Assembly: GCA_964372635.1 (NCBI GenBank)
Contig: CAYJQW010000005.1
Coordinates: 44 to 64,043 of the forward strand
Direction: 5' to 3'
Origin: an uncultured Candidatus Saccharibacteria bacterium
GTDB lineage: Bacteria; Patescibacteriota; Andersenbacteria; UBA10190
Length of the DNA stretch: 64,000 bases
This document shows positions 46,229-64,000 of this stretch, one piece after another (positions within the stretch are counted from its first letter, which is position 1; every line of letters begins with the position of its first letter). The notes under the pieces are model-generated. The model worked only from the letters and a program-made list of their open reading frames with translations, did not search any database and was not told where the DNA came from. Made by a program: the position numbers and the translations under genes.

Positions 46229-46246
46229 AGCATTGCAACTTATTTT

Positions 46247-46276: not shown

Positions 46277-47367
46277 ACAGAAAACTTAAATAGCATAATG
46301 TCACCATCTCGCACAATGTACTCTTTACCTTCATTCCTGACTTTGCCAGCTGAACGTGCTGCCGCATAAGATCCGGCTGTAATTAAATCATCATATGCCA
46401 CTGTCTCAGCCCGGATAAAGCCGCGCTCGAAGTCAGAATGAATTTTTCCAGCGGCCTGCGGGGCTGTGCTGCCCGAGACTACTGTCCAGGCACGGGATTC
46501 AGTCGGGCCGGTAGTTAGAAATGTAATTAATCCCAAGAGTTGATAACTGGCGGCGATCAGACGATCAAGACCAGTTTCTTTCAATCCGTATTCTTGTAAA
46601 AAAGTAAACCTATCCTCGTTTGAGAGTTCTATAACTTCCTGTTCAATCTTTATACTTAAAGGAAGTACGGGAGAAAATATTTTTTTAAACTTCGCAATAG
46701 CCTCATCTTTTTTTATTTGGGTTTCACTGACATTGGCTAAATAAAGCGTTGGCTTAGCTGTTAAGAGAGAAAATGAGCGAATAATCTCTTGTTCTTCTTT
46801 CCTTAATGGCAAATCACGTGCTGGTTTACCAGCGGATAAATGATCCTCAAGTTTTTTAAGCGCCACTATTTTAACTTTCCAGCGTAGTCCATTGGGTGAA
46901 GTGGGGCTGTTTCCTTTAGCATCATGTTCTGCTTGTTGCTTAGCCTTACTCACTAATTCCAAGTCTGCCAAGGCTAATTCTGTTTCAATGGTAGCCACAT
47001 CAGCTTGGGGATCTACTTTGTTATCTACATGAATGGTATTGAGATCTTCAAAAAATCTCACAACATGAACAATTGCATCAACTTCACGAATGTGTGAGAG
47101 GAACTTGTTGCCCAGACCCTCGCCTTTATGTGCCCCCTTGACCAACCCGGCAATATCAACAAACTCGATAGTCGTTGGTGTAATTTTGGCAGATTTAGAC
47201 AGCACTAAAAGTTTTTCTAAACGTTGATCAGGCACCGGCACCACACCCACATTTGGTTCGATAGTGGTAAAAGGAAAATTCGCACTTTCGGCGGCTTGCT
47301 TAGTGAGCGCATTAAATAGAGTACTTTTACCTACGTTAGGTAAACCGACTATTCCTGCTTTTAACAT
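46273..47367 (-). CDS. ychF: Ribosome-binding ATPase YchF (Obg-family GTPase)
   Basis: [22 protein letters not shown], a G-domain, and a C-terminal TGS domain. Confidence 0.9.
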
Positions 47368-47412
47368 TCATTATATGTAGCTCGACCGTCATCTTTCGGC
47401 AAGGGTGCAATG
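47357..47412 (+). repeat. Repeat copy A (degenerate): the real ychF start and upstream region
   Basis: cttttaaCATtcattatatgt...ctttcggcaag shares blocks with copies B and C. CAT at 47365-47367 is the ychF ATG on the minus strand. Confidence 0.55.
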
Positions 47413-47480
47413 GAAAATCAAGGCGCCTATATAAGCCAGTTTGCTAGTCAGTAGAAGTAAGAAAGAGATTAATTGTACTT

Positions 47481-47513
47481 GACCCCTTTTTGACCCCTTT
47501 TTGTCTTTTTGTC
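47481..47513 (+). repeat. Short tandem repeat gaccccttttt x2 plus gtcttttt gtc
   Basis: Direct reading of the sequence between repeat copies A and B. Confidence 0.6.
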
Positions 47514-47517
47514 ATAC

Positions 47518-47573
47518 AACTTTTAACATTTCTTATATGTCGCGGCGGTGTCGTTTCGGCAAGAATCGGAACA
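47518..47573 (+). repeat. Repeat copy B (left boundary of the GC-rich block), ~54 nt identical to copy C
   Basis: acttttaacatttcttatatgtcgcggcggtgtcgtttcggcaagaatcg. On the minus strand it retains ATGTTAAAAG, which mimics the ychF start codons. Confidence 0.65.
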
Positions 47574-47599
47574 ACATCGACCAATGGGAGCAGTAACTA

Positions 47600-49063
47600 C
47601 TATTGCCGTCGAACTATGTTGGCTTCATTCTTCGTAAATATGTTGCGGCTGGCGTGACTGAAGCTGGGGTTGACGTGGTCTAGAAATATCGCTGCTTTCT
47701 GGCTCCTGACGATCGTGTTGGCCGTAAGTGTGTTATTGCGAACGTCGTCTTTTAGGTAAATGCCATAGCGGTTTCCGACCAACTTGTTGTCAAGCACTAT
47801 GTTTTTGTCCGTTCGAAGGTATACGCCACCACGACTGTTAGTGATTGTGTTGTTTCTGATAATCGTGTTTCCCGCTCCTTGATAGAGATACACACCGTAG
47901 TCGCGATTGTTTGCCAGTGTGTTGTATTCGACGAGGTTGCTGGTGGCAGGATCGTTAATGCGGATGCCGTTATTGTTGTCGTACGCCGTATTGTGGCGGA
48001 TGACGTTGTTGCTAGAACGATACACAGCGATTCCGTCCTGGTTGTTGTAAACCGTGTTGTCTTCTAACAAGTTATTGTGTGAGTCTTCATGAATTATAAT
48101 CCCGTGGCCTTGGTTATCATAGGAGATGTTGCCGCGGAAGGTATTACCGCGGCAGCGTTCGGAGACAATGATTCCGTGCTTGCCGTTGTGGTGAGCGCGG
48201 TTGCCGACGATCAGAGCGTAGTTAGAATCATTGTACGGATCGAGACCATAAATCACGTTGCGGTATAGCTCATTGTTAAGCCAGTTCATACCTACAGCTC
48301 CGAAAGTGTAGGTGCCGTAGTAGTTATGATGGAAGGAGCTTCCTCGTACCTCACCGGTCAAGAGGTGTACGCCCGACGTATCATCCGCTCGCCAACTAAC
48401 GCCGTAGTGGCCGCTTATGTTCGGCTGCGAGGCGTATCCAAGATAGGCAAGCTCGGCATCAATAATGTCCATGCGGGCATCCTGACCGGCACGGACATAG
48501 GCGCGGCCATCCTGCCAGCGGTAGTCATAGTCGCGCGCCTGCACGTCCCACGAGGTCAGACGCACACCTTCAATATAGATGCGACCTTGAACGACACGAA
48601 TCCAGACAAATTTTTCCGGTGTGCTGGTTAGCTTGAGGTCGGTTACCTCGGTAACTGTTAGTTCCAGCAGCACATCGCGATTAATCAGCAGATTAGTTTT
48701 TAGCAGCCAACTTGTTAATCCCAGCTGCTGTACGTGGTCGGGGCCAAGTGCGCGGGACAGGTCGGACATAGTCACGCTCGTGCCGGGGCCGCTGACGCTG
48801 ATCCTATCTTTCTCCGGCTCGTAGACAATTGTCGGTTTAGCCGACTGGTTTGTGGTGGCACGCAACGCCGCATCAGTGATGTCGTAACGGTGCAGCGGCA
48901 CGGTGATAAGTTGGTCGGCTACAAATTGCTGCCTCTGATTAACCGCAGTGAGATCAGCCACAGTGGTGTGGTAGCGGCGAGCAATCAGCGACATTGTATC
49001 TCCGTTCTTCCAGACGTAGGGAGCATCCCAGGTCTCGGTTGTGCGGTAAGCAGGCGCGGTCAC
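47600..49063 (-). CDS. LysM + right-handed parallel beta-helix (PbH1 repeat; pectate-lyase/NosD/AlgG-like) protein, no signal peptide
   Basis: N-terminal LysM-like YVWKNGDTMSLIARRYHTTVADLTAVNQ...LITVPL. About 9 PbH1-type repeats (NNQDGIAVYRSSNNVIRHNTAYDNNNGIRIN...). Start overlaps the GT2 stop (ATGA). Confidence 0.65.
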   Translation of the reverse strand: MTAPAYRTTETWDAPYVWKNGDTMSLIARRYHTTVADLTAVNQRQQFVADQLITVPLHRYDITDAALRATTNQSAKPTIVYEPEKDRISVSGPGTSVTMSDLSRALGPDHVQQLGLTSWLLKTNLLINRDVLLELTVTEVTDLKLTSTPEKFVWIRVVQGRIYIEGVRLTSWDVQARDYDYRWQDGRAYVRAGQDARMDIIDAELAYLGYASQPNISGHYGVSWRADDTSGVHLLTGEVRGSSFHHNYYGTYTFGAVGMNWLNNELYRNVIYGLDPYNDSNYALIVGNRAHHNGKHGIIVSERCRGNTFRGNISYDNQGHGIIIHEDSHNNLLEDNTVYNNQDGIAVYRSSNNVIRHNTAYDNNNGIRINDPATSNLVEYNTLANNRDYGVYLYQGAGNTIIRNNTITNSRGGVYLRTDKNIVLDNKLVGNRYGIYLKDDVRNNTLTANTIVRSQKAAIFLDHVNPSFSHASRNIFTKNEANIVRRQ

Positions 49064-50433
49064 CTGGAAAGCGGCCAGGTGGTGGGTGGGTTACTAAGTG
49101 CGGATTCGTCAATACTCTCTGCTCTGACGGTTGTCGGGGTTAACTGGCTTGTCCCGTAAACCACCCCACTTAAAACCACAATAATTACGGCGGTTGCTCC
49201 ATAGGCTGCTATTAACTTGAGCCAGGTGTGTTGTGGCAAGCGGTTTTTATCCCAGCGAGTGATCCAACCTTGCTGGTTCATAGTAATAAGTGCGTATATG
49301 CGCACGAAAGCTGTAATAAAGGTGTACAAGATGTAGATTGGCAAAAGGACGATGTCTGCCGGCCGACGCCGCAGGTGCGACCAGAGGCGAATTAGGCGGC
49401 TGGCGTGCCACCACACCAGCACAATTCCGGCAGCCAACCAATATTCGCGCAGCAGTGCAGCGGCAAAATAAAGTGGTGAGAACAACAGCACAAACGGCTG
49501 AATCATTTGATCGACAATAAAGAACGCCAACGCAGGATGTCGCCAAACCCAGCCCTCCCAAAGGGCCCGCAGGTTGGCTCGCCAACTGTTACGAGTCCAG
49601 CGCAATCGCTGCTTCAGTAGTATTCCCAGTCGGTCAGCGCCCGGCGTAAAGACGCGGGCAGTTTGCTGAAACGCCAGGTGCCAGCCTTTTGCGGCAACCA
49701 GATAGGTGAGACGTTTATCTTCGCCGCTTATGACAGGTTTGCCCCAAAAAGTTTCGTTGACCATATCCGGCAGCACAGGCAAGAGCGTCTGGCGGCGGTA
49801 CAAGGCGGTGCGCCCTGACAAGCAAGTCAGTACGGTGCCGCTTCCGGCTAGATACGGCATTTCATCGGAGTAGCGCAGATCGAGTTGAATATCGAATAGG
49901 GCCTGGGCGACTGTCGTGACCGCTAGCACATTTTGCCGAGTGGCCACGCCACCCACACGGGGGTCACTAAAAGCTGGCAGCGCTTCGGTTAACATAGTTG
50001 GATCCCACAACGTGTCGCTGTCAACTAGAGCAATTATATCGCCGGTAGCCGCCCGCGCGCCGTCGGCCAAAGCCTGTCGCTTACCGGGCGTGGTGGTCAC
50101 AATCAGCTTCGCGGCCGGGTATTGGGCCGCAAACTTACGAAACACCTGCTGGCAGGATTTATCCGTGTGGTCAATGACGGCAATAATCTCGAGTGGGTCG
50201 TTCGCCTGCCAGGAATATAGAGCTTGCTGAAATAATGTAGGTTCTTCGTTATACACTGGCGTGACGACAGACACCGAGCCGCGATACACACCGCGCATCG
50301 GTCGGTAGCGCCGGCCCATCACTTTCTTATATAACCAGACACTCCAACGCCAGATGCCGACAACACTGAGAGGAAAATAAAACGCGATCAGACCTGGGAT
50401 GTCGTGCACTTCAATTGAAAAAAAGTCAGTCAC
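49060..50433 (-). CDS. Processive family-2 glycosyltransferase (hyaluronan/cellobiuronan/cellulose-synthase-like, QxxRW)
   Basis: N-terminal TM helices; GT-A domain with VVTPVYNEEP, DSDT (DxD) and QRLRW; C-terminal TM bundle. Size (457 aa) and topology resemble HasA/Cps3S-type membrane synthases. Confidence 0.75.
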   Translation of the reverse strand: MTDFFSIEVHDIPGLIAFYFPLSVVGIWRWSVWLYKKVMGRRYRPMRGVYRGSVSVVTPVYNEEPTLFQQALYSWQANDPLEIIAVIDHTDKSCQQVFRKFAAQYPAAKLIVTTTPGKRQALADGARAATGDIIALVDSDTLWDPTMLTEALPAFSDPRVGGVATRQNVLAVTTVAQALFDIQLDLRYSDEMPYLAGSGTVLTCLSGRTALYRRQTLLPVLPDMVNETFWGKPVISGEDKRLTYLVAAKGWHLAFQQTARVFTPGADRLGILLKQRLRWTRNSWRANLRALWEGWVWRHPALAFFIVDQMIQPFVLLFSPLYFAAALLREYWLAAGIVLVWWHASRLIRLWSHLRRRPADIVLLPIYILYTFITAFVRIYALITMNQQGWITRWDKNRLPQHTWLKLIAAYGATAVIIVVLSGVVYGTSQLTPTTVRAESIDESALSNPPTTWPLSR

Positions 50434-51400
50434 GGTTGGCCACCAGATTGACTGATAACTCTGCGTCCACCAACTGGGTATTGTGGACTCTAAGTTCTGG
50501 TTGTGGAGCCGGTGAGGCCGCCGTATGTATAGAGTCGTTCAGCGCAATAGTGGCCGCCAGGACGGGCATGTCATAACCATTCTTAGTCGCCCAGGCATAG
50601 AACGCCTGCGTGTCCTTAGGTAAGCACATGCCGTCGAAAGCTCCAAAGTCGCGTGTCCCATAGGTCGCATTCCACATCCCTTCACAGCTAAGAGCGGTTA
50701 GCTTGAAGATGGTCTCATGATCCAGGCCCCGCACCTGACAAATCCGTCGCATTTCATTAAAGAAACTAATCTTAGTGGCGTTGAACAAATTGTGAGCATA
50801 TTTTTGCAGTTCGGCTTCCTGAATAGAAACTCGAACCAAAGGACAGTCGAATCCTTGGTAGAGATCAGCCAACAAGTCGCCCGAGCGTTGGTCAAATTGA
50901 CCGATCACGATCAGCCACGGTTGTCGAAAATCTTCCGCAGCGCTCTTTTCACGTAAGTACTCGGGATTCATGCACAAGCCAAAATCACGTCCTCTAAGTT
51001 TGCCCGACTCTCGCTCAAGAATCGGTGCGATCACTGTCTCAGTAGTTCCGGGCGGGACTGTGCTACGCACGGTTACTAAGTGATAACGATTCATAGTTTT
51101 CAAGCGCTGCCCCAGTTCATATGCCGCCGCTTCGATATGCGCCAGGCTAATGCTCCCCTCGGCCGTGGGTGTGGAAACGGTAAGAAGAGAAATATCTGAG
51201 TCGTCACCAGCTTTTCTTAGCGACTGCGGCAAGTAGCAGCGCAAACCTCGCTGCTGGAGGTGTGTAACCGTGGCTGCATTCACGTCAACGAACTGAACAG
51301 TGTAGCCTTGTCCTAGTAATCCCAGACCAGTGGCCTGGCCGACGACACCAGCACCGATAACGGAGATAGTTAGTTTTTTTGTCTGGTGTTTTCTATGCAT
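50426..51400 (-). CDS. UDP-glucose/GDP-mannose dehydrogenase family protein (short, 324 aa)
   Basis: N-terminal Rossmann ISVIGAGVVGQATGLGL and catalytic-Cys block GAFDGMCLPKD (compare GGSCFPKD). Overlaps the GT2 start. Confidence 0.65.
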   Translation of the reverse strand: MHRKHQTKKLTISVIGAGVVGQATGLGLLGQGYTVQFVDVNAATVTHLQQRGLRCYLPQSLRKAGDDSDISLLTVSTPTAEGSISLAHIEAAAYELGQRLKTMNRYHLVTVRSTVPPGTTETVIAPILERESGKLRGRDFGLCMNPEYLREKSAAEDFRQPWLIVIGQFDQRSGDLLADLYQGFDCPLVRVSIQEAELQKYAHNLFNATKISFFNEMRRICQVRGLDHETIFKLTALSCEGMWNATYGTRDFGAFDGMCLPKDTQAFYAWATKNGYDMPVLAATIALNDSIHTAASPAPQPELRVHNTQLVDAELSVNLVANRD

Positions 51401-51478: not shown

Positions 51479-53440
51479 CTATTGCCTCAAGGCTTCAATT
51501 GGCTCCAACTTAGCCGCCCGCAGCGCTGGATATGTGCCTGATATCAGACCGATCAGGCCACCTAAAAGAGGGGCGAGCAATGGAATACTTGGATCTAAAA
51601 CAGGTGTCCAGACTTGGTAGGCTCCTACAGCTACTACTACCAGAGTGCCTAGACTGGCGCCAATGATACCTCCGATGATTCCCATGGAAGTACTTTCGAT
51701 GAAAAACTGTGTCGCAATATGACGGCGCGTGGCACCGAGCGAGCGGCGCAGTCCGATTTCACCGATGCGCTCAATCACAGATATTAGAGTTATATTTCCG
51801 ATACCAATTGCTCCCACAACAAGGGATAAGCCGCCTAGTAAGAGCATTAGTATATTTAATTCACTTTGGATGGCCTCGCGCACGCGTTTGGGCTCAGGTG
51901 GCGAGACAATCTTTAATGTTTTTGGATCATCCGGTCGTAGAGCCAGCGGAGCTTGGCGTGAAATCAACGTTGCGGCACCAATTCTGGTTTCAATGATTAC
52001 CGAGCTAGGACTTGATAACCCAAAATCACGCCTTGCTGTTTCTTCGGGAATAATGACTGAACCGAGTAGGTCTGGCTGTCGACCGACACCGTCCAAGATT
52101 CCCATCACGAGGTATATCTTATCCCCAATGGCGATCGCTGGCAGATGCTCAACACCGACAATATTAAGCCGCTCGGCTGCCGAAGGACCCAGCACGGCAA
52201 CACGATCTCCTCGCTGGGAGTGACCCTTATCCGGCAAACGACCATTTTTCAGGTTGGCTCGTACAGTCGCAAACAATTCAGGCGACGCAGCTTGAACAGC
52301 CAATTTGAAATCCGTCTGACGGCGCGGGTCAGTAATAGTTGATGCACTAACCAGGGCGTCTTGGCTAGCTACCGGGCTCAATGTTCCGGCGGTAACTACG
52401 CCATTAAGGCGAAGCAGACGCTGAGCAGCATCCCAAGGGATGACTTTATTTTGTTGGCTAGCCAGACTGGCGCGAGGCGTCACCATGATTTCAGTGGCAG
52501 CTAGTTCATTGAAAGTTCCAATAATACGATTACTTGCTGTGCGTGATACTCCAACGGTGGCGACCAAAGCAGCGATACCAATCACTACCCCCAGGCTAGT
52601 CAGTGCGGTGCGAGTTGGATTGGCGAACAGACCGGCGATTGCTTCACTTACGAGGTCATGAATAGTTATGCCTGAGCGTGAAACCACATTCGCCGACCGG
52701 CTAGTACCGGCGGAGTTCATGGTGGTCAGCATAGTTTTTTCGCTCGACTGCTCAATTGATTTGCCATCTATGATTTCGAGACGTCGGCCAGCGCGCGCGG
52801 CCACATCTTCATCATGAGTAACGACCACTATTGTTAGCCCCTGTTGATGCAAGTTCTCCAGCAGCTCAAGGAGGTTGGCGGCTGACTTCGAATCTAAGTT
52901 ACCAGTTGGTTCGTCACACAATAACAGATCCGGAGTACCAATCAAGGCGCGGGCAATGGCAACCCGTTGTTTTTGTCCACCTGATAATTTGGTTGTCAGA
53001 AAATCAGCCCGGTCACCTAGGCCGACTTGATTAATAGCGGCTAAAGCCCGTTCACGCCGGCCGTGGTGCGATTGCTTTCGGTACACTTCTGCTAGCATCA
53101 CATTTTCGACTACTGATTTGTGTGGCAATAGGTGAAACGATTGAAAGACGAAGCCAATGTGTCGACTGCGCAGTCCAGCCCGCTCGACTTCGGTTAACTT
53201 CGTGGTATCGATGCCGCGGAAAAAATATTGACCGGCTGTTGGCCGATCTAAGCAGCCAATAATATTTAAGAGTGTTGATTTACCCGAGCCTGATGGGCCA
53301 GTGATTGCTAACCACTCGCCTGTCTCAAGCCGAAAATCAACCCCGGCCAGGGCTTGGACAGGCGCGTCAGTACCGAACTGACGACCAACGTTACTGAGCA
53401 AAAGTATCGTTTCAACGGGTGAACTTTTTGATGTTTTCAT
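51479..53440 (-). CDS. MacB-type ABC transporter (fused ATPase + FtsX-like permease)
   Basis: Walker A GPSGSGKST; signature LSGGQKQRVAIARAL; Walker B LLLCDEPTGNLD; then a large extracytoplasmic domain and 4 TM helices (FtsX fold). Confidence 0.8.
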   Translation of the reverse strand: MKTSKSSPVETILLLSNVGRQFGTDAPVQALAGVDFRLETGEWLAITGPSGSGKSTLLNIIGCLDRPTAGQYFFRGIDTTKLTEVERAGLRSRHIGFVFQSFHLLPHKSVVENVMLAEVYRKQSHHGRRERALAAINQVGLGDRADFLTTKLSGGQKQRVAIARALIGTPDLLLCDEPTGNLDSKSAANLLELLENLHQQGLTIVVVTHDEDVAARAGRRLEIIDGKSIEQSSEKTMLTTMNSAGTSRSANVVSRSGITIHDLVSEAIAGLFANPTRTALTSLGVVIGIAALVATVGVSRTASNRIIGTFNELAATEIMVTPRASLASQQNKVIPWDAAQRLLRLNGVVTAGTLSPVASQDALVSASTITDPRRQTDFKLAVQAASPELFATVRANLKNGRLPDKGHSQRGDRVAVLGPSAAERLNIVGVEHLPAIAIGDKIYLVMGILDGVGRQPDLLGSVIIPEETARRDFGLSSPSSVIIETRIGAATLISRQAPLALRPDDPKTLKIVSPPEPKRVREAIQSELNILMLLLGGLSLVVGAIGIGNITLISVIERIGEIGLRRSLGATRRHIATQFFIESTSMGIIGGIIGASLGTLVVVAVGAYQVWTPVLDPSIPLLAPLLGGLIGLISGTYPALRAAKLEPIEALRQ

Positions 53441-54990
53441 TATTTAAAACCAATGACAATCAGCTGACTTGGTGTCAGCGTTCCGGTGACGGGAGTGACT
53501 TCCACAAAACCATTGGCCGACAAACCGGTTTTCACAGTGACATACTGTAGAGATCCATCTTCGTCTACTTGTACACGCGAGGTACCATCAGCGGCCAGGG
53601 AGACAGCACTGATAGGTACGGCGATCACTTCATCCTTAGTTGATTCAATCGGAATGGTGAGTCGTAGTGATGTGCCTTCCAGAGTGGTGGGAGTTGTATC
53701 AACTGTTACTTCAAAATAGACGTGGAAGCCATCCACTCCGTTGGTGCCGGGCGCAGCGGCGACTTTAGTCACGATACCGGTTGCTTCTATGCCTAAGTCC
53801 GCCTCGTCTATCTTCACTTTCATGTCGGGTTTTACCAGCGCGGCTTCGGCAAGCGGCAGAGAAGCATCAATCACGACTTGATTATTAGTGACTGTTAACA
53901 CTGGTCCTTTCGCAACTGCGCCAACGGCAACGTCAACTTGTTTGATGCGCGCTGGCAGCGAGTTTACAAACATGACTTCATTGGCAGGTACTTGAATACC
54001 CGTTTTGCTTTGGACACGACTTAGATCGGACGCAATGCGTGCGGCTAACGCCTTGGCCACTACGGCTTCACGTTGTCCAATCTGCTGCGCATTCAGGGCC
54101 GTCTGTACGGCAATAGTGCCTTCTTGCCGTAATGCTTTAGCAGAGGCTTCAGCAGCCTTAAAATCGGCGGTGGCTTTAGCTTTTTCTTCATTAGTTGCAC
54201 TTAAGTCCCCAGTGACTTTAAGGTACGTCGCCTTTTTTGCTTCAATGTCAGCAGTCGCGGCGATATTAGTGCCGGCTGCTTTATCACGGGTAGCCGCAAC
54301 TAACTTAGGCCCAGCGGCCAGTGTGGCGATGAACTGATCTTTCTCTGCCACGGCCAACTCCTCGATTAGGGTGTGAATTTCCTTGAGTTGCTCTGGAGTT
54401 GGCTCAAATGGTTGCCAATTGGATCTGGCGTACCATGCAGCTACAGCGGCGGCGGTTTGGGCATCGTACCGCCCATCGATGATTCCGGGATAAAAACCCA
54501 GTCGTTTAAGGCCCTGTTCTAATTGCATTATATCTTCACCAATAGTACCTGGAGTCATATCCCGAAACGCGGGGATGGCACCTTCCATGACAAACACCGG
54601 ACGGTCACCAATAGTGAAAGCGACCTGACCTTCTTTAAATTGCGCATTGGGCAAGGGAAGGGTAGTGATCAGTGTCTCGAGCGGTTTGGCGGCCGAGTGA
54701 GGCAGCGATATTGTTTGTGGCAGACCGAAGCGAGCCGTGCCGCGAGTCACAATATCAGAGGTAAGCACGCGTTTCTCGATCGGAACCAGAATCGGCGAGG
54801 CTAGTGGCGGGGCCACTTCGGCAGCGATTTCGGCTGGCGATTTAATACGTGATCCAACTAGCCAACTACCCAGCGCCAACACAACAACTGCTCCGAGAAT
54901 TAGACTGATGAGCTTTGACCTTTTTTGCGTGTGTGCCAGTTCAGCGATAGGTTTCGGTATCAGACGAAACAATGTCAGTTTTATATTCAT
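53440..54990 (-). CDS. HlyD/MacA-family periplasmic adaptor (membrane fusion protein) with inserted peptidoglycan-binding domain
   Basis: N-terminal TM; PG_binding_1-like LEQGLKRLGFYPGIIDGRYDAQTAAAVAAWY; long Ala/Lys-rich coiled-coil hairpin; C-terminal beta-barrel/MP domains. Start overlaps the MacB gene. Confidence 0.7.
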   Translation of the reverse strand: MNIKLTLFRLIPKPIAELAHTQKRSKLISLILGAVVVLALGSWLVGSRIKSPAEIAAEVAPPLASPILVPIEKRVLTSDIVTRGTARFGLPQTISLPHSAAKPLETLITTLPLPNAQFKEGQVAFTIGDRPVFVMEGAIPAFRDMTPGTIGEDIMQLEQGLKRLGFYPGIIDGRYDAQTAAAVAAWYARSNWQPFEPTPEQLKEIHTLIEELAVAEKDQFIATLAAGPKLVAATRDKAAGTNIAATADIEAKKATYLKVTGDLSATNEEKAKATADFKAAEASAKALRQEGTIAVQTALNAQQIGQREAVVAKALAARIASDLSRVQSKTGIQVPANEVMFVNSLPARIKQVDVAVGAVAKGPVLTVTNNQVVIDASLPLAEAALVKPDMKVKIDEADLGIEATGIVTKVAAAPGTNGVDGFHVYFEVTVDTTPTTLEGTSLRLTIPIESTKDEVIAVPISAVSLAADGTSRVQVDEDGSLQYVTVKTGLSANGFVEVTPVTGTLTPSQLIVIGFK

Positions 54991-55023
54991 AGCCCCGATG
55001 TACCCCTTTTACTCCACCTGTCT

Positions 55024-55995
55024 TTAGTTTTGTGGTGCGCCGTAAAGTTCAGTTTCAACCTGAACTACAACCGGCTCAATGAATTCCTCCGCGCAGTCAA
55101 AATCGGCGACGGCGATCGCTCGTTCCTCGCCTTGCAGCTCAGTTAACACCTTTTGGATATCAGGAGCTAAAGTGCTTGGATCAGCCTCACCAGTAATACT
55201 AGTCAGGCGATCTTGAAGGTCTTTTTCAATTTCTTCGGGGTTATTGTAGTTAAAACCTGCTTTCCGGATGCAACTCGCCCACTTGGCAGTGGCAGCGATT
55301 ACTCGCGAATCTTGCGCAATCAGCACATCGCCTGGGTTAGTGTAAGCGCCGCCTAACTGATCGCGGTTAAACACTTGTTCGATGGCGGTGCGTGTACAAC
55401 CACCCACTTGCGAGAAGTCTTCAGCTTCAAGAGAGACGGCAAACGTGGCAGTCGTGTTTTCACCAAAGAGGGAACGGTTGTAAGCTACCTGGTTACTGGC
55501 CGACAAGTTAATAAACAGTTGTACATTCTGGCTACCTAAGCCAATAGTGGCAGCGTGGTCAGCACCAGAAAGCTGGGGGGCAGTACCAAGCTTAGTATTC
55601 TGCGTGGAAATACCGTAGCCGAATTGGGAACGGAATTCATCATCAGTTAATCCGGCAATTTTTTTATCGGCGTCCATGGATTTTCGCACGGTGAGATAAT
55701 CGGCCGGGATATATTGAAAACCAGTGGTCTTCATACAACTGGCAATACCTTGTTCAACTGCCTCGATATTCTTCACCAACTCGGCTTTGGTCAAACCAAA
55801 TTCTTCGGCTCCTGGCAATATAGCTGCAGGGGATTGTGAGATAGTGGCGGGCGATGGTTTGCGGCTAGGCCAAAGATTATCGTTAGGACTGACAATATAG
55901 GAAATACCAGCGATGGTGGCGATCACGAGCACAGTCAGTAATAACGGTTTCTTTTTCATCTCTACACATCTAGCACAGACCATCTGACTAGTCAA
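55024..55995 (-). CDS. Exported hypothetical protein with two Cys-containing internal repeats (likely start at MKKKPLLL, near coordinate 55959)
   Basis: Signal/TM KKKPLLLTVLVIATIAGISYIV. Repeated blocks C.KTTGFQYIPAD and CIRKAGFNYNNPEE. First gene of the minus-strand operon. Confidence 0.4.
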   Translation of the reverse strand: MTSQMVCARCVEMKKKPLLLTVLVIATIAGISYIVSPNDNLWPSRKPSPATISQSPAAILPGAEEFGLTKAELVKNIEAVEQGIASCMKTTGFQYIPADYLTVRKSMDADKKIAGLTDDEFRSQFGYGISTQNTKLGTAPQLSGADHAATIGLGSQNVQLFINLSASNQVAYNRSLFGENTTATFAVSLEAEDFSQVGGCTRTAIEQVFNRDQLGGAYTNPGDVLIAQDSRVIAATAKWASCIRKAGFNYNNPEEIEKDLQDRLTSITGEADPSTLAPDIQKVLTELQGEERAIAVADFDCAEEFIEPVVVQVETELYGAPQN

Positions 55996-56041
55996 CGTAC
56001 AGAACTTGTGCTACTTTTGTCGATAAGGAGGGGTCCTTCAT

Positions 56042-56542
56042 GTGCATAGTTGTATGATGCGTATCTCCTTCTTCATTATTTCTATTACTCTAACCGCAGT
56101 TAGTCTGGCTGGGGTTTTTTTATATTACTTTCTACAGTTGCAGTCGGCGTCTTTGACAGATAGTTCCTTTATTCAGAGCGATACTAAATCAGCTCAGATT
56201 ATACCGATTAAAGATACTGAGCTAAATCATGTGGTGTTGACAGAGCGGGCGACACAGCGACTGGCCATTGCGACTGTTCCAGTTCAGGTTGCCACTTCAG
56301 CTCAGGCTAGACAGGAAAATGGCCGCACAATTATTCCGTATTCGGCAGTGATTTACGATCCGAACGGAGCTACCTGGACATACACGAATCCAGAAACTTT
56401 TGTGTATGTCAGGCATCCCATCACGATTGTCTATATTGAAGAAGACTTTGCTGTTCTCAGCAGCGGTCCACCATCTGATACGAGGGTGGTGACGGTCGGG
56501 GCGGCTGAACTGTTTGGAGCTGAGTTTGGTGTCGGCAAGTAA
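56042..56542 (+). CDS. Minimal membrane-fusion-protein-like adaptor (TM + beta-barrel/membrane-proximal domain only; no alpha-hairpin)
   Basis: N-terminal TM; C-terminal IIPYSAVIYDPNGATWTYTNPETFVYVRHPITIVYIEEDFAVLSSGPPSDTRVVTVGAAEL matches the MFP C-terminal pattern (VP..AV...G..VYV...V..G.VV.G). Immediately precedes two RND genes. Confidence 0.45.
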   Translation: MHSCMMRISFFIISITLTAVSLAGVFLYYFLQLQSASLTDSSFIQSDTKSAQIIPIKDTELNHVVLTERATQRLAIATVPVQVATSAQARQENGRTIIPYSAVIYDPNGATWTYTNPETFVYVRHPITIVYIEEDFAVLSSGPPSDTRVVTVGAAELFGAEFGVGK

Positions 56543-56554
56543 CGGATATACGTT

Positions 56555-59500
56555 GTGGCTATACCAGTGATCCGTCATATAGTTGAGACAAGTTTGCGGC
56601 TTCGGTTTCTGATGGTGGCGATTATTATTGTCTTGTTGCTAGTTGGCGTAAGTGAGTTTCCGGAAATACCAGTCGACGTGTGGCCTGAACTCAACCCGCC
56701 GTTAGTAGAAATTCAAACTGAAGCACTTGGGTTGGCTGCGGCTGAAGTGGAATCCTTAATCACCGTTCCGATGGAGGCGGATTTACTCAACGGTATTGCC
56801 TTCCTAGACCACATCACGTCGGAGTCGGTGGCTGGTTTATCGTCTATTCGCCTCATTTTCGAACCTGGGACTGATCCGATGATAGCCCGGCAATTAGTGG
56901 CTGAACGATTAACGCAAGCGTTTGCATTGCCCAACGTGTCAAAACCACCAATGATGCTGCAGCCTCTGTCGAGTACAAACCGGGTGATGATGATTGGTCT
57001 TTCTTCGCAGGATTTATCGTTAATTGATTTATCTGTGCTGGCGCGATGGAATATTAGGCCACGCTTAATGGGTGTTCCGGGAGTTGCAAACGTGGCAATT
57101 TGGGGTCAGCGGGAACAGCAGTTACAGGTACAGGTTGATCCAGAACGACTTTATCGGCAAGGCGTCACTCTCCAACAAATCATTGAAACTGCTGGCAATG
57201 CTCTGTGGGTATCGCCACTTAGTTTTTTGAATTCCTCGACACCTGGCACGGCTGGTTGGATAGATACACCCAATCAACGACTTGGTCTCCACCATGTCTT
57301 ACCCATTAAAGGGCCAGAGGACCTATCTAAGGTATCAGTCGCAGGTAGCAGTGGGCTGCGTTTGAGTGATGTGGCCACAGTAGTGGAAGATCATCAACCG
57401 CTAATTGGTGATGCGGGGTTAAGTGATCAGGCGGGTCTCCTGCTGGTCATTGAAAGGTTTCCTGAAGCTAACACATTGGAAGTAACCGATGATGTGGAAG
57501 AAGTACTCGACGCTCTACAACCTGGTCTTACTGGGGTCGAGATCGACACCATTTTCCGCCCGGCCAGTTATATCGAGCTAACGATCTATAATTTGGTTGT
57601 TGCTGCGCTGTTGGCTGGCGTGTTTATTGGGCTGGCGTTATTTACTTTTCTTGATGCGTGGCGCGTGGTGTTCATTGGCGTTCTGTCGATTCTTGGAGTA
57701 CTACTCATCGCTGGGCTGATTCTGTTACTACACGGGACGAGTATCAATGCGATGATGATTGTAGGAATTGTAATTGCCATTACTATCGTCATCGATGATG
57801 TAGTGCTTGACAGCGAAACAACGGTGCGGCGACTACGTGAATCAGCTGATATGAATCGTGATCAGTCGCTGCAGTCAGTGATTGTATCTGCCACGCTGCA
57901 GCTGCGTCGTCCGTTAAGCTATGCGACAATAATCATGTTACTAATTGTGTTGCCGGCCTTCTTCTTGCCTAATCCCGTCGGCGCATTTTTCCGGCCACTA
58001 GCGTATGCATATATTTACGTGTTGCTTGCAGCTGTAGTAGTGACACTAGTTATCACGCCGATGTTAAGTCTGATACTATTGTCAACTTCGCGGCGTACCC
58101 ATGACGCACCGGCGATCATCATACTGCTCTCACAACGTTACCGAAATTTACTCACGCGTTGGCTTGGTGTCCCTCGCCGCGTGACTAGCGCGGTTGTGAT
58201 CACTGTACTTGGAGGTCTATTACTACTGCCACTTATTACCGTGTCTTTGCTGCCCGTGTTTAAGCAGACGGATCTACTAGTGCGGCTGAAAGGTATACCT
58301 GGCACGTCGCAACAGGAGATGAACCGGATGGCAGTTTCGGTCAAGCAGGAGGTGCGATCGATACCGGGCATTCGGAATGTCGGATTTCAGGTCGGGCGAG
58401 CCATAACCGGGGATCAAGTCGTTGGTATCAATTCAGGTGAGCTGTGGATAAGCCTTTCTCCTACGGCGGTGTATGAGGCAACAGTGGATAGAGTTCGAAA
58501 AGTGGTTGATGGCTACCTTGGTTTTGCGAGCGCGGTACAGACCTATCAACCAGACAAAGCCGAACAAATATTATCTCGCGCTGAGCAAGACCTGGTTGTG
58601 CGCGTGTACGGTCATGAGTTAGATGAACTCCAGCGTCAGGCCGAGATAGTACAGCAGCGCCTTGCAGAGATTGAAGGTATCAGAGATGTACATGCACAAC
58701 TGTCGGACCTGGAGCCGCAAGTGGAAATAGAGGTGGATTTAGCGGCGGCCGAACGCTATCAAATTAAACCTGGTGATGTCCGTCGGCAGGCGAGTACGTT
58801 GTTGTCTGGTTTGCAAGTGGGTAATCTATTTCAAGATCAGAAAGTCTTCGATGTTGTCGTCTGGGGTGTACCTGAATTACGCCAGAATTTGACTAAACTA
58901 CAGGAACTTCAGATTGACACGCCGGGCGGCCAGGTGCGCTTGAGGGAATTAGCCGATGTGCGCATTGTGCCCTCACCCACCATTATTATACGTGACGCTG
59001 TCTCGCGTTATATTGATGTTGTTGGGAGCGTGCATGGTCGGGATGCACGAGCGGTGAAACGTAATGTCACCAAGGTTCTCTCAAGTCTAGTGTTTCCCTT
59101 AGAGTACCATGCAGAAGTACTGGATGAATCGGCTATACAGCAGCGAGCCGAGTGGCGCACCTTAAGCGTGGTGGGTGCGGTCTTAGTGGCGTGTTTACTT
59201 TTGCTCCAGGCGGCTTTTCAAAATTGGAGGGTAGCCGTACTCTTTTTTATCAGTGTGCCGTTAGCACTTGTTGGCGGTCTGGCGGCAGCGATACTTGGTG
59301 GCGGTACGCTTACAATCGGTTCAGTAGGTGGATTCTTGGCGGTGTTAGCAATTGTGGTTAGAAGTGGTGTGGTGCTGCTCGATCACTGGCAACAACTCGA
59401 ACAGCAGGCAGGCATGCCTTTTGGCTTAGCCCTTGTCTTGCGTGGTAGCCAAGAGCGACTCACACCAATTCTCATGTCTGCCAGTGCGATCGGTCTGGCG

Positions 59501-59647
59501 ATGCTACCACTTGTGCTGTTTGGTACTATTCCTGGGTACGAACTACTGCATTCACTGGCGATTGTTACTATTGGTGGCTTAATTACCTCGACTCTCTTTC
59601 TTCTCTTTCTTCTGCCAGCGTTGTACTTGCGGTTTGGGAAGTCTTGA
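56555..59647 (+). CDS. RND efflux transporter, HME (CzcA/CusA-like) type, paralog 1
   Basis: 1030 aa, 12-TM RND architecture. N-terminal block IFEPGTDPMIARQLVAERL resembles CzcA IFKDGTD..ARQLV. TM4 has IVIDDVVLDSE. Confidence 0.8.
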   Translation: MAIPVIRHIVETSLRLRFLMVAIIIVLLLVGVSEFPEIPVDVWPELNPPLVEIQTEALGLAAAEVESLITVPMEADLLNGIAFLDHITSESVAGLSSIRLIFEPGTDPMIARQLVAERLTQAFALPNVSKPPMMLQPLSSTNRVMMIGLSSQDLSLIDLSVLARWNIRPRLMGVPGVANVAIWGQREQQLQVQVDPERLYRQGVTLQQIIETAGNALWVSPLSFLNSSTPGTAGWIDTPNQRLGLHHVLPIKGPEDLSKVSVAGSSGLRLSDVATVVEDHQPLIGDAGLSDQAGLLLVIERFPEANTLEVTDDVEEVLDALQPGLTGVEIDTIFRPASYIELTIYNLVVAALLAGVFIGLALFTFLDAWRVVFIGVLSILGVLLIAGLILLLHGTSINAMMIVGIVIAITIVIDDVVLDSETTVRRLRESADMNRDQSLQSVIVSATLQLRRPLSYATIIMLLIVLPAFFLPNPVGAFFRPLAYAYIYVLLAAVVVTLVITPMLSLILLSTSRRTHDAPAIIILLSQRYRNLLTRWLGVPRRVTSAVVITVLGGLLLLPLITVSLLPVFKQTDLLVRLKGIPGTSQQEMNRMAVSVKQEVRSIPGIRNVGFQVGRAITGDQVVGINSGELWISLSPTAVYEATVDRVRKVVDGYLGFASAVQTYQPDKAEQILSRAEQDLVVRVYGHELDELQRQAEIVQQRLAEIEGIRDVHAQLSDLEPQVEIEVDLAAAERYQIKPGDVRRQASTLLSGLQVGNLFQDQKVFDVVVWGVPELRQNLTKLQELQIDTPGGQVRLRELADVRIVPSPTIIIRDAVSRYIDVVGSVHGRDARAVKRNVTKVLSSLVFPLEYHAEVLDESAIQQRAEWRTLSVVGAVLVACLLLLQAAFQNWRVAVLFFISVPLALVGGLAAAILGGGTLTIGSVGGFLAVLAIVVRSGVVLLDHWQQLEQQAGMPFGLALVLRGSQERLTPILMSASAIGLAMLPLVLFGTIPGYELLHSLAIVTIGGLITSTLFLLFLLPALYLRFGKS

Positions 59648-59656
59648 ACCTAAGTT

Positions 59657-62600
59657 ATGATTCGTCGGAAGATTATTGACAGTACTAATGTCACATCGAC
59701 CTTGTTCTTGCAGTGGGTCATTCGCACAAGCCTACAGTTTCGCTACCTCGTCATATTTATAGTGGTGGCGCTTATTGTCTTTGGCATCGATGCGATTCGC
59801 CAGATGCCAGTTGATGTGTTTCCAGAGTTTGCGCCACCGCGGGTCGAGATTCAGACTCCCAGCCTGGGCCTTTCCGCGACTGAGGTGGAAGCACTGGTAA
59901 CAACGCCATTGGAGGAGATATTTAATGGGGTGCCGCAGCTGGATATCATGCGTTCCAAATCAGTGGAACAATTATCGTCCATAGTGCTTATCTTTGAACC
60001 CGGCACTGAATTGATGAAAGCTCGGCAGTTGGTAGCCGAGCGGTTAGCTATTGCGATACCTATCTTGCCAACCTGGGCAGCCCCTCCGGTGATGATGCCG
60101 CCGCTGTCATCAACGGCACGGACGATGAAAATAGGTATTTCTTCGAACGACCGCAGCGTGATCGAACTGTCAATGATCACATATTGGAAGATTAGGGAAC
60201 GATTGTTGCGCGTACCTGGCGTGGCCAACTTAGTGATTTGGGGCGAGCAGATTCAAATGCCGCAGGTGCAAGTTGATCCGGAGCGTCTTCAAGCAGAGGG
60301 TGTGTCGATTGATGAAGTTTTGCAGGTTACTTCAGATACGCTGGACTCTGGGATGATCCAATACTCTGACGGATCAAGAATAGGCGCGGGCGGATTTTTA
60401 GTGACGCCCAACCAACAGTTGGCGATTCGTCACGTGCTGCCTTTTCTTGAACCAAGTGATTTGGCGCGTATAGTAATAAATGACCGCACCAAAAGTGACG
60501 GCACACCGCTACGATTGGGTGACGTAGCGAATTTAGTGGAGGGTACATGGCCCATGATTGGTGATGCAGTAGTTAACGATGGTCCTGGACTTCTGCTGAT
60601 TGTTGAAAAGTTTCCCTGGGGTAACACGCTTGAGGTGACTCGAGGGGTCGAAGCAGCGATCGATGAAATGCGACCTGGATTACCAGGTATCGACATTGAC
60701 ACCACCATTTTCCGGCCGGCAACGTTTGTGCAAGCCGCGCTCAATAATTTGGTAACCTCTTTACTGATTGGGGCAGGCCTGGCGGTAGTGGTGCTTCTCC
60801 TTTTTCTATGGGACTGGCGGATCGCGCTGATTTCCGCCGCGATTATTCCAGTGACGGCGGTGCTTACTTTGCTGGTACTGTCTTGGTTGGGAACAACACT
60901 TAATGTGATGGTATTAGCGGGGTTGGTGATCGCCATTGGCGCGGTGATTGACGATGCCATTGTTGATGTCGAAAACATTGTGCGGCGACTCCGCCAATAT
61001 CGCCGGCAAGGAAGCACTAAAGGAACGGCTGAGATTATCCGCTTAGCGTCAGTCGAAGTACGCAGTGCCATTATCAATGCGTCGCTGATTGAGATGATCG
61101 CGCTTATTCCAGTCTTCTTTTTACCTGGGCTATCGGGCGCTTTTTTTCGACCGCTGGCCCAAGCTTATGTAGTGGCGACTATAATATCCCCGTTGGTTGC
61201 GCTCACGGTTACACCAGCGCTGATTTTGATTTTGTTGGAGAATGCGCCAATTCGTGAGCGCCTGTCTCCAATTATTCCGTATCTTCAGCGGAGCTATGAC
61301 AGGTTGCTGGCGAGAATTATTAAAGTACCGCGGCTGGCGTATGCGGCCTGCGGTGTGCTGTTGGCATCTGGTATTGTGGTATGGCCACATTTAGGGCAGG
61401 AGTTACTACCCTCGTTTAAAGAACGAGACTTTCTGATGCATTGGGTGGCTAAGCCTGGCACATCGCATCCGGAAATGGTGCGAATCTCCACTCGGGCTTG
61501 TCAGGAACTACGCACTATACCGGGGGTTCGTAATTGTGGTTCCCACATTGGGCAAGCGTTACTAATGGATGAGGTCTACGGCATTTATTTTGCTGAGAAT
61601 TGGGTGAGTGTTGATCCCGCGGTTGACTATGACGTGACACTCGCCAAAATCCAGGAGATGGTTAATGGTTATCCCGGGCTGGTACGTGATGTACAGACCT
61701 ATCTAAAAGAACGCATTAGAGAAGTCCTGACCGGGTCAAGTCATCCGATTGTCGTTCGCATCTATGGCCAGGACATGGGAGTCTTGCGAGGGTTAGCTCA
61801 AGAAGTGCAGGAGGAACTTGCTAAAATTAGTGGCATTGTTGATGCACAAGCGGAGCTTTTAGTTGATATTCCCCAGATACAGATTGAAGTCGATTTAACG
61901 GCAGCCGAGAAATTCGGTCTTAAACCAGGTGATGTTCGCCGACAGGCGGCCTATATGGTGGCGGGTGAAGAAGCGGGCGATATTCACACCGCTAATCGTA
62001 CTTATGATGTACAGGTATGGAGTACACCAGCCTCACGACACAGCCTGAGCAGTATAAAAAACATGCTAATAAATACGCCCACAGGACAAACCATCCGTTT
62101 GACGGATGTTGCCGATGTCCGTATCGCACCAGCGCCTAATGCTATCAATCACGAAGGTCTCTCCAGAAGACTTAACGTTGAAGCTGATGTGGTAGGAAGA
62201 GATCTGGGCTCAGTGATTGACGATGTCGAAGATGCTCTCGATACAGTTCAATTTCCCCTGGGCTACTATCCGACATTGCTTGGCGAATACGCCGAGCGAC
62301 AAGCGGCGCAAGAGCGCATTGTGATTATGGGTCTCCTTGCGGTGCTCGTGATTTTCTGCCTCTTACGGGTATCGCTTGGGAGTTGGAAAGTGGCAACTAT
62401 GGCTTTTTTAAGCTTGCCAATGGCGCTGTCGGGAGGCATCCTAGCGGCGCTTTTGTTTGGCGGCGTATTGACGCTCGGTTCTTTGGTTGGTCTTCTCACC
62501 ATTTTAGGCATAGCAGCGCGTAATAGCATTATGCTCATTAGTCACTTTCAACATCTTGAAACAGTAGAAGGCATACCTTTTGGATCGGCTTTGGTTCAAC

Positions 62601-62842
62601 AGGGTGCACGAGAACGACTGGTACCGATTCTCATGACCGTGTTAACGGCCGGACTGGCATTGGTGCCGCTCGTGATTGCTGGCAATATTCCTGGGCATGA
62701 AATTGAACATCCGATGGCCATTGTTATACTCGGTGGCCTACTAACCTCGACGCTGGCCAACTTGTTTGTAGTGCCCGTGTTATACCTAAGGTTTTTCATC
62801 CCTTCGACAGGCTCACTTTTCGACCAGCGTAAAGTGCCATGA
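59657..62842 (+). CDS. RND efflux transporter, HME (CzcA/CusA-like) type, paralog 2
   Basis: 1061 aa; IFEPGTELMKARQLVAERL; TM4 AVIDDAIVDVENIVRRL. In tandem with paralog 1, separated by 9 nt. Confidence 0.8.
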   Translation: MIRRKIIDSTNVTSTLFLQWVIRTSLQFRYLVIFIVVALIVFGIDAIRQMPVDVFPEFAPPRVEIQTPSLGLSATEVEALVTTPLEEIFNGVPQLDIMRSKSVEQLSSIVLIFEPGTELMKARQLVAERLAIAIPILPTWAAPPVMMPPLSSTARTMKIGISSNDRSVIELSMITYWKIRERLLRVPGVANLVIWGEQIQMPQVQVDPERLQAEGVSIDEVLQVTSDTLDSGMIQYSDGSRIGAGGFLVTPNQQLAIRHVLPFLEPSDLARIVINDRTKSDGTPLRLGDVANLVEGTWPMIGDAVVNDGPGLLLIVEKFPWGNTLEVTRGVEAAIDEMRPGLPGIDIDTTIFRPATFVQAALNNLVTSLLIGAGLAVVVLLLFLWDWRIALISAAIIPVTAVLTLLVLSWLGTTLNVMVLAGLVIAIGAVIDDAIVDVENIVRRLRQYRRQGSTKGTAEIIRLASVEVRSAIINASLIEMIALIPVFFLPGLSGAFFRPLAQAYVVATIISPLVALTVTPALILILLENAPIRERLSPIIPYLQRSYDRLLARIIKVPRLAYAACGVLLASGIVVWPHLGQELLPSFKERDFLMHWVAKPGTSHPEMVRISTRACQELRTIPGVRNCGSHIGQALLMDEVYGIYFAENWVSVDPAVDYDVTLAKIQEMVNGYPGLVRDVQTYLKERIREVLTGSSHPIVVRIYGQDMGVLRGLAQEVQEELAKISGIVDAQAELLVDIPQIQIEVDLTAAEKFGLKPGDVRRQAAYMVAGEEAGDIHTANRTYDVQVWSTPASRHSLSSIKNMLINTPTGQTIRLTDVADVRIAPAPNAINHEGLSRRLNVEADVVGRDLGSVIDDVEDALDTVQFPLGYYPTLLGEYAERQAAQERIVIMGLLAVLVIFCLLRVSLGSWKVATMAFLSLPMALSGGILAALLFGGVLTLGSLVGLLTILGIAARNSIMLISHFQHLETVEGIPFGSALVQQGARERLVPILMTVLTAGLALVPLVIAGNIPGHEIEHPMAIVILGGLLTSTLANLFVVPVLYLRFFIPSTGSLFDQRKVP

Positions 62843-62917
62843 GCTTGTCGAGGAACAGGGTTAATCTTAAGTGCGTCGAAGAAGATTGACACCTCATCTG
62901 GCCAGCAGTATCGTGAC

Positions 62918-63811: not shown

Positions 63812-63873
63812 CGTGAAACTTTTGCCTGTGCGCAGGCGAAAGGATTAGTTTGGATATTGGTATGCAAATACCA

Positions 63874-63933
63874 AACTTTAACATTTCTTATATGTCGCGG
63901 CGGTGTCGTTTCGGCAAGAATCGAACTAACATC
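63874..63933 (+). repeat. Repeat copy C (right boundary of the GC-rich block)
   Basis: aactttaacatttcttatatgtcgcggcggtgtcgtttcggcaagaatcg is identical to copy B over ~54 nt. Two small hairpins precede it (gcctgtgcgcaggc; ttggtatgcaaataccaa). Confidence 0.65.
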
Positions 63934-64000
63934 ATAGTGTTTGTCTTTCATGTTTTGTGAAAAAATGATGGCTACCCAAATAAGCTCCTACATCTTTCGT

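Follow-up and report, generated by a model that had tools for sequence, protein, structure and literature searches.

The stretch of DNA analysed here, referred to as the window, comprises 64,000 nt of contig CAYJQW010000005.1 (assembly GCA_964372635.1) from an uncultured Saccharibacteria-like member of the Patescibacteria, whose closest YchF relatives carry the label Candidatus Saccharibacteria. Its subject is the gene ychF and the additional ychF starts that lie upstream of it on the minus strand (Table 1). The gene itself is intact and stands in the order ychF-rpsF-ssb-rpsR found in other Patescibacteria, for example in L105 (L-numbers denote the public contigs and loci compared with the window). 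Upstream of it come copy A, which contains the real start, a second copy (B), a block of foreign genes and, close to the end of the window, a third copy (C).

Table 1. Features of the ychF locus in window coordinates; junction and remnant assignments are putative.
Feature	Coordinates	Strand	Evidence and remarks
ychF, intact candidate target gene, 364 aa	46273..47367	-	Open reading frame (ORF); Pfam MMR_HSR1 and YchF-GTPase_C
224-nt direct repeat (B-spacer-A), right copy	47349..47572	-	blastn, 95.5% identity to left copy at composite 64116-64338
Copy A, junction now fused to ychF (attR-type)	47349..47417	-	TTGCCG block, ACATATAA/TATAAT block, ATG (47367) opening the 364-aa ORF, first codons
Collapsed B-A interval	47418..47516	-	Decayed integrase-tail remnant and 11-mer tandem duplication
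Copy B, degenerate junction	47512..47578	-	Left arm 92% identical to C, then ATG 47529 and 5-codon ORF (47529-47512)
Cargo module 1	47600..51400	-	LysM/right-handed beta-helix protein, 487 aa; family-2 glycosyltransferase, 457 aa; UDP-glucose/GDP-mannose dehydrogenase-like protein, 324 aa
Cargo module 2, seven-gene efflux block	51479..63811		Pfam; Chloroflexota-like
Copy C, junction at far end of cargo	63853..63933	-	B-type left arm, ATGTTAAAG, ATG 63884, dyad, degenerate tail
First part of the interval that continues beyond the window to A', with its dyad and tail intact, and B'	63934..64000	-	L082 overlap and extension

A pattern that covers the ACATATAA block and the start (ACATATAANNAATGTTAAAAG, at most 3 mismatches) matches exactly three sites in the window, namely A (47358-47403), B (47517-47578) and C (63872-63933). 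Only 0.03 matches are expected by chance, and three matches were obtained in 0 of 100 shuffles. Read on the minus strand, copy A is cccttgccgaaagatgacggtcgagctacatataatgaATGTTAAAAGcagg, with cccttgccgaaagatgacggtcgagctacatataatga before the ychF ATG, and copy B is cttgccgaaacgacaccgccgcgacatataagaaATGTTAAAAGttgtatga, with its ATG 162 nt upstream of that of A. Over 60 nt at the start, A and B agree at 44/60 positions and B and C at 56/60; C is 92% identical to B over 62 nt. The preliminary description of the window had reported three copies of the ychF 5' end, a pseudo-start in B that ends in a 5-codon ORF, a tandem 11-mer between A and B, and a perfect TATAAT 2 nt before the ATG of A. The pseudo-start and the 11-mer (GACCCCTTTTT / AAAAAGGGGTC, two copies at 47481-47502) were found as described. 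The TATAAT is also present, but I rejected it as a canonical sigma-70 promoter: it lies too near the ATG and 21 nt from the TTGCCG block, and a promoter scan tool for sigma-70-like sites finds none in A or B.

The three copies are likewise real, but the count rises to at least five once the sequence is followed beyond the window. Contig L082 (2,272 nt, GCA_964572235.1) overlaps the window over 1,932 nt at 100% identity and extends 340 nt past its end; positions above 64,000 are composite coordinates obtained by joining L082 to the window. The extension reveals a second B-spacer-A unit, with the ATG of B' at 64296 and that of A' at 64134. The two units form a 224-nt direct repeat of which copy A is the ychF-proximal end. 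By inspection, the B and spacer part (about 170 nt) is identical between them whereas the A part has diverged (54/60 positions). The intervening DNA is therefore bracketed by repeats that hold a ychF start at both ends, and not, as the preliminary description had proposed for the island, just by B and C.

A perfect repeat of this length invites the question of whether the layout is an artefact. The cargo might exist mainly as a circle of about 16.6 kb (C-cargo-B-spacer-A'-tail), or in another arrangement, with the contig being one assembler path through the repeat. The identical B-spacer units exceed the unique anchor of a short read, contigs assembled by Logan from run ERR3478686 are broken within A (L001) and within C (L083), and the source contig, which at 64,080 nt is nearly all covered by the window, stops about 80 nt after it. 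Against this, the window contig and L082 follow both paths of the integrated configuration and share their long identical overlap, and since the left flanks of B and B' differ, as do A and A', all four junction types are real sequences. Even under the circular reading the copies stay attachment-type junctions. I regard this explanation as improbable; still, the integrated layout rests on the assembler's threading of the 170-nt repeat, and the 16.6-kb circle is an alternative or coexisting state. In the same run, among the Logan k=31 contigs, L001 starts in copy A, 16 nt ahead of the ATG, and L083 ends in copy C; such breaks are expected if the repeats are real in the reads.

The copies that do not serve ychF share an anatomy in which a ychF start is followed by an inverted-repeat partner and then by a coding tail, the tail being kept in A' and weakly in C. 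A' retains ychF-like codons for about 10 codons (MLKVGIGTLP) before it diverges, and its codons GTT GGG ATA precede their own inverted repeat. The core, AAAAGTTGGGATAGG-TACGCT-ACCATCCCAACCATT, consists of 15-nt arms round 6 nt (DNA fold z -4.7). Copy C has a weaker dyad (TTTGGTAT-ttgc-ATACCAA at 63875-63857, fold z -2.6), and copy B, which has lost its dyad core and the greater part of its tail by deletion, shows no dyad symmetry (fold z -0.17). B and B' have both lost most of the inverted-repeat partner and the tail, of which a 19-mer from the end of the tail ORF remains (AAGGGGTCAAGTACAATTA, codons RGQVQL); it lies at 47470-47488 in the B-A interval, and the identical 19-mer closes the tail ORF of A' in L082. 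Within ychF itself, the P-loop codons GLPNVGK (47326-47344, minus strand) contain an 8-bp palindrome, TTTACCTA-acg-TAGGTAAA (fold z -2.2), which may be due to chance or may be part of the right half of an attachment site.

The DNA between C and B is foreign to its surroundings. This 16.3-kb block has a GC content of about 50% vs 43%, and GC fraction runs at 0.47-0.55 from 48 kb to the window end vs 0.40-0.48 across most of the remaining window, with 52-55% GC over 48001-51000 in module 1. Module 2 encodes a MacB-type ABC transporter, a peptidoglycan-binding adaptor, two RND pumps and three hypothetical proteins (one of 297 aa). Pumps labelled Anaerolineae, Caldilineaceae, Promineifilum or Chloroflexota share 72-81% identity with the 1,061-aa RND pump of this module; the host's own YchF reaches at best 76% identity to any protein among 5.8 billion clusters. 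All seven genes are syntenic with L111 and L112 (GC 56-57%, one of them named Anaerolineae) at 51-78% amino acid identity. Judged by these similarities, the efflux module is an inter-phylum transfer of Anaerolineae type into a reduced Saccharibacteria-like genome. The block thus combines the deviant composition and foreign genes of a genomic island with an insertion point at the start of a protein-coding gene rather than at a tRNA or tmRNA gene, neither of which occurs in the window. No Rfam family matches within 46000-64000, and an exact look-up of the 487-aa cargo protein returned no record.

What ties the repeated starts to a wider phenomenon is their recurrence in other genomes. When the ychF loci of 80 relatives were checked for extra copies of their own ychF start, L003 (YchF 67% identical) stood out with 5-6 copies spaced 0.7-2.6 kb apart. 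Each runs in the order TTGACC-17-TAGAGT set 6 nt before an ATG, ychF codons 1-8, a dyad (TGGGATAGT-cagcac-ACTATCCCA, in the same 15-6-15 layout as A') and about 105 nt of conserved tail. The pattern that A' shares with L003, AAAGTTGGGAYAG-N10-ATCCCA, matched 18 metagenome contigs, about 12 of which, belonging to Patescibacteria and read on the proper strand, consist of a ychF start, a 15-6-15 dyad and the conserved tail. In every locus that extends far enough, namely L087, L088, L091 and L096, the real ychF is found 0.5-2.6 kb downstream of the copy and on its strand, and copies stand 0.5-2.7 kb upstream of ychF, again on its strand, in L003, L087, L088, L091, L096, L010, L036, L068, L105 and L106-L108. 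A profile search of the loci returned arrays of 2-6 junctions upstream of ychF in L003, L010, L036, L068, L094-L098 and L102-L108. Exact-pattern scans of IMG/VR and the JGI metagenomes with the A/B/C motif gave no match, and the upstream regions of the relatives do not align with that of the window.

Two further observations concern the layout of these arrays. The dyad cores of L003 (3514-3537, 4290-4313, 6345-6368 and 7376-7399) are followed by a T-run and score like intrinsic terminators, and from their sequence they might stop transcription from displaced ychF promoters. In Microgenomates-type contigs (L105, 10001-12117; L085; L091/L094) a junction ORF, a gene of the endonuclease/exonuclease/phosphatase family and ychF recur in that order, with a gap of only 16 nt between the nuclease gene and ychF, which looks as though a remnant of a single gene had been fixed in the operon of ychF.

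The tail that follows the dyad is, by its pattern of substitution, protein-coding. When five divergent copies are compared, the three codon positions diverge by 0.36/0.20/0.56, and 66 synonymous codon differences fall in the coding frame vs 13 and 10 in the other two. The translation, WD.HFTVPTFDFYFK..IPKANKERLIIERD.LGRIVHS, is conserved from Microgenomates-type contigs to L003, and a profile of the tail recovers that of A' (hhalign probability 89%, E 2e-6) as well as that of L003 (98%, E 7e-14). Gene callers annotate the tail as small hypothetical proteins, nearly all of 40-200 aa (103 clusters at 90% identity, 224 at 50%), and these small tail or junction ORFs match no Pfam or PHROG family. 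Many junction ORFs begin with an ATG that overlaps TGnTAAAAT, an extended -10-like motif. The hypothetical proteins of 40-90 aa (about 224 clusters at 50% identity; L085, L091, L096, L098, L102-L108; P0121-P0223, P0344-P0474) each appear to be a displaced ychF promoter and start, read in the +2 frame and fused to a severed integrase tail, that is, a by-product of integration.

The integrase in question is probably a large serine recombinase (LSR). In L106, L107 and L108 two junctions stand ahead of some 8 kb of small genes, after which come an HTH_17 gene and a 547-aa LSR with Resolvase, Recombinase and Zn_ribbon_recom domains; the 3' end of the LSR gene and the start of ychF share 44 nt. An LSR 42% identical to the L106 type abuts ychF in L004 (YchF 63% identical to that of the window), and in the Berkelbacteria contig L055 an LSR C-terminus overlaps ychF. 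The position held by copy A in the window is taken in L106, L004 and L055 by the 3' end of an LSR gene. In all three lineages (L106-L108, L004 and L055) the ATG of ychF falls on the second codon position of the LSR frame, and the tail uses the same frame. Furthermore, eight cluster representatives are C-terminal LSR fragments (...IIDKVII.ERSGVEVWAHLPLP..KLGYEP...) that read in frame into the tail, one of them 1.3 kb upstream of ychF. Given the overlap of LSR and ychF in constant phase and these in-frame fragments, the attP site appears to be located within the 3' end of the integrase gene and to carry a replacement ychF start.

Other identities for these sequences were considered and set aside. 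A similarity of the tail to YchF residues 30-55 is unconvincing by eye, and the reading frame and LSR fusions explain the tail better than a ychF fragment would. That the junction ORF is a free-standing small gene is conceivable, as many copies start with ATG, but that ATG overlaps the TGnTAAAAT motif, the L003 copies have no start codon, and LSR fragments enter the tail in frame. The left arms of B, C and A show no convincing similarity to LSR C-termini, and I do not claim them as such remnants.

I therefore consider it probable that the copies of the ychF start are attachment-site junctions produced by serial site-specific integration at about codons 7-8 of ychF, a hot spot in Patescibacteria. 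The elements would use an LSR and would carry attP within the last ~45 codons of the integrase gene, together with a replacement ychF start (ATG plus 7-8 codons), such that in the free element the integrase gene would end with the tail and contain attP. On integration ychF would stay intact, its previous start would be shifted to the far end of the element, and this old start would be joined to the severed integrase tail, which would then be parked behind it. Because the new junction again resembles a ychF start, further elements could insert there and give rise to arrays, provided that the junction acts as attB, as the copy of ychF codons 1-7 borne by the element leads me to infer. The role of an LSR in making the junctions of this genome and the position of the crossover are likewise inferred, and as no integrase survives in the window any present mobility is unproven.

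Applied to the window, ychF would now start from junction A. A' would be an old junction that has kept its dyad core and integrase tail in good state, whereas C would have degenerated and B and B' would have undergone internal deletions. The B-A and B'-A' intervals would be collapsed remnants, and the 16.3-kb Chloroflexota-like efflux and polysaccharide block would be cargo whose integrase was lost. One history that could explain the arrangement is that a composite segment (A' tail, C, cargo, B, spacer and left arm of A) entered an A-type site of a chromosome in which B-spacer was already present. The whole stretch between the cores of A' and A, about 16.8 kb long and flanked by the 224-nt direct repeat, could still be lost or gained through an LSR acting in trans or through homologous recombination. 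The suggestion in the preliminary description that a duplicated ychF 5' end is the scar of site-specific integration is hence supported by the foreign DNA between copies, by a dyad and tail in A' with homologues across Patescibacteria, and by LSR genes adjoining ychF in relatives. The 155-nt interval it described between A and B also exists, but is better seen as a collapsed remnant holding a decayed integrase tail, in which the 11-mer repeat would be a small tandem duplication.

The latest insertion or duplication could instead have come about by homologous (RecA-type, Campbell-like) recombination, in which a circle bearing B-spacer-A crosses with the chromosomal copy; even so, a recombinase may have left the older junctions as scars. 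The repeat on either side is long, its divergence is confined to the A part, the block has no integrase, and recA is in the window at 42252-43298. Such a crossover leaves unexplained why the repeat consists of ychF starts with dyad cores and integrase tails, and why the same architecture stands beside LSR genes elsewhere, and it covers the last step only. I judge it unlikely, if less so than an assembly artefact. Far less credible is the notion that the copies are conserved regulatory repeats or a mobile promoter, that is, ychF promoter/leader modules that drive or insulate their neighbours and have nothing to do with integration. It would account for the uniformly placed TTGACC-17-TAGAGT boxes of L003, for its terminator-like dyads and T-runs, and for the operon-like arrangement in L105, where displaced start, nuclease-family gene and ychF share one orientation. 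It does not account for the sequence behind the start, where a different frame is constrained at the level of codons and extends LSR genes in frame, or for copies that flank foreign DNA; the scan tool sees no promoter-like site in A or B of the window, although in L003 it does support a promoter reading of the conserved blocks, and Rfam has no match.

The nature of the recombinase also needs to be weighed, as a tyrosine recombinase (integron-like, Xer/dif-like or a dusA-type integrase) could be imagined to have made the junctions. The 15-6-15 inverted repeats resemble the core sites of such enzymes, and the cassette-like arrays of L003, at about 1-kb spacing, look like an integron. However, the recombinases found abutting ychF are all of the serine type, and tblastn of the window and the examined loci with hand-typed tyrosine-recombinase motifs gave no match, a weak negative. 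The involvement of a tyrosine recombinase is accordingly very improbable. One string, ATGTTAAA, resembles part of the XerD arm of dif, but by inspection the 11-6-11 spacing of dif fits neither A nor B, and a dif-like site was rejected.

Several points weigh against serial integration by an LSR. No recombinase gene was detected in the window or its 340-nt extension by Pfam or tblastn, none of the 10 cargo proteins has a Resolvase, Recombinase or zinc-ribbon domain, tblastn of the window with the L106 LSR gave no match at E 1e-4, and no HTH_17 gene like that preceding the L106 LSR was found in the window. Two things connect this genome with the LSR family, a tail match of 27 columns and the dyad of one copy outside the window; B has no dyad and C only a weak tail. 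A comparison with an empty site found no close relative, the nearest YchF proteins being 70% identical among GTDB species representatives and 76% identical in the 5.8-billion-cluster set. The identical 170-nt part of the repeat fits homologous as well as site-specific recombination for the latest event. In the relatives, N-terminally truncated fragments but no full-length LSR-plus-tail protein were seen, and the junction left arms of L003 contain an in-frame TGA inside the TTGACC box, so an integrase gene lying upstream could not be read through into its tail. Neither the conserved right arm nor the L106 LSR had a match in scans of IMG/VR, and thus no free attP form was recovered. Finally, serine integrases normally recombine attP with attB only, and tandem arrays would therefore need the regeneration of attB proposed above. 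The window holds scars and cargo only and is best named a decayed, integrase-less island with attachment-site scars.

Some observations on neighbouring sequences stand apart from this argument. Genes for a Fic-domain protein and a TrmB-like helix-turn-helix protein lie beside ychF arrays in two lineages (L109, 13014-16362; L003, 206-3441). In L109 they lie between ychF and rpsF, a layout that suggests a second variable spot downstream of ychF. In the window, a perfect 17-nt inverted repeat (ACAAGCTAGGCTGATGA / TCATCAGCCTAGCTTGT, at 42800-42816 and 43920-43936) flanks 1.1 kb of DNA, in which lie the 3' portion of recA and an ORF of 191 aa that matches no family.

How does this arrangement compare with known systems? 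Islands and prophages specific for dusA integrate into the 5' end of that gene in Proteobacteria by means of a tyrosine integrase, with attL and attR sharing a 21-bp consensus (Farrugia et al., Nucleic Acids Res 2015, PMC4482086). As there, the 5' end of a conserved gene is replaced by element sequence, a remnant 5' end is left at the far side, and the direct repeats are imperfect; unlike there, the target is ychF in Patescibacteria, the association is with an LSR, and attP overlaps the integrase's own coding end. The hand-typed motifs revealed no tyrosine integrase of the DusA-specific kind beside the target, and the element is not a member of that group; by analogy of mechanism, the dusA-specific islands are its closest functional counterpart. 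In pneumococci, a prophage remnant lies between dnaN and ychF; its attB, 14 bp long, falls in the -35 region of the ychF promoter, and integration and excision rearrange this promoter and change ychF expression (PMC6375853). The upstream region of ychF is thus an attB in both cases, but the pneumococcal site is not in the coding start, the integrase is present, excision has been shown experimentally, and neither arrays nor codon replacement are involved.

With prophages and gene-intervening elements of the LSR type (phiC31, Bxb1, A118, SPbeta, skin; reviewed e.g. in PMC3783163), the elements of the relatives share an integrase at the edge, putative short attachment sites of imperfect dyad symmetry, insertion into a protein-coding gene and a small helix-turn-helix gene beside int (HTH_17 in L106). 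Sites of this type span about 40-50 bp and have imperfect dyad symmetry around a central crossover; among the copies here, A' shows a dyad (15-6-15, z -4.7, outside the window), C a weaker one (z -2.6) and B none. The element would work like an LSR integrative element with 5'-end replacement, and the copy in the window has no integrase gene. To my knowledge, no case has been described in which the last ~45 codons of an LSR gene are exchanged by integration, or in which a replacement gene start borne on attP keeps the target functional and lets arrays build up. Full-text searches of the literature returned neither LSR elements at ychF of Patescibacteria nor an LSR gene that is cut short when it integrates, but this negative is weak.

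An attP inside a coding gene is itself familiar. Integrases of the SSV1 type in archaea carry attP inside a coding gene of the element, and integration splits int. Broussard and colleagues are said to have described in 2013 an integration-dependent immunity of mycobacteriophages in which integration removes a C-terminal tag from the repressor. Both systems share with the present one an attP inside the element's own gene and a product altered by integration, but they have tyrosine integrases and tRNA-gene targets, whereas here only the C-terminal tail of a serine integrase would be exchanged. Integron cassette arrays are similar in their short gene-bearing intervals between like recombination sites, in their single fixed place on the chromosome and in the arrival of new insertions beside the fixed end. 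They differ in that the arrays at ychF have no IntI-type tyrosine recombinase and no attC structure, their sites being made of a housekeeping gene start and an integrase tail. No intI with attI and no attC-bounded cassettes were found, nor any tyrosine recombinase with the hand-typed motifs, and the arrays are not integrons.

For the window itself, the practical message is that 47.6-63.9 kb represents acquired cargo with old attachment sites as its boundaries. The interest of these scars is low in its own right and higher for the family they reveal. It is possible, though on balance doubtful, that a widespread and so far undescribed family of serine-integrase elements in Patescibacteria targets ychF codons 7-8, carries attP in the integrase gene, swaps the last ~45 integrase residues on insertion and regenerates a usable attB, such that integron-like arrays build up. 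If so, the ~224 clusters of hypothetical proteins that match the tail would be ghost ORFs made of a ychF promoter and start plus an integrase tail, and an orphan family of small proteins would be explained as an integration by-product. The exchange of the last ~45 residues could be a built-in switch of integrase activity or direction, and the idea that integration may remodel the integrase's own C-terminus is testable. The integrase and its attB would also be a candidate pair of engineering tools for organisms that are hard to manipulate. Patescibacteria (the candidate phyla radiation) have tiny genomes, few characterised mobile elements and almost no genetic tools. An integration hot spot in a universal gene, with a specific integrase family and recognisable attachment sites, offers a way to find islands in them and to track gene flow, as seen here in the passage of a Chloroflexota-type efflux module into a Saccharibacteria-like genome.

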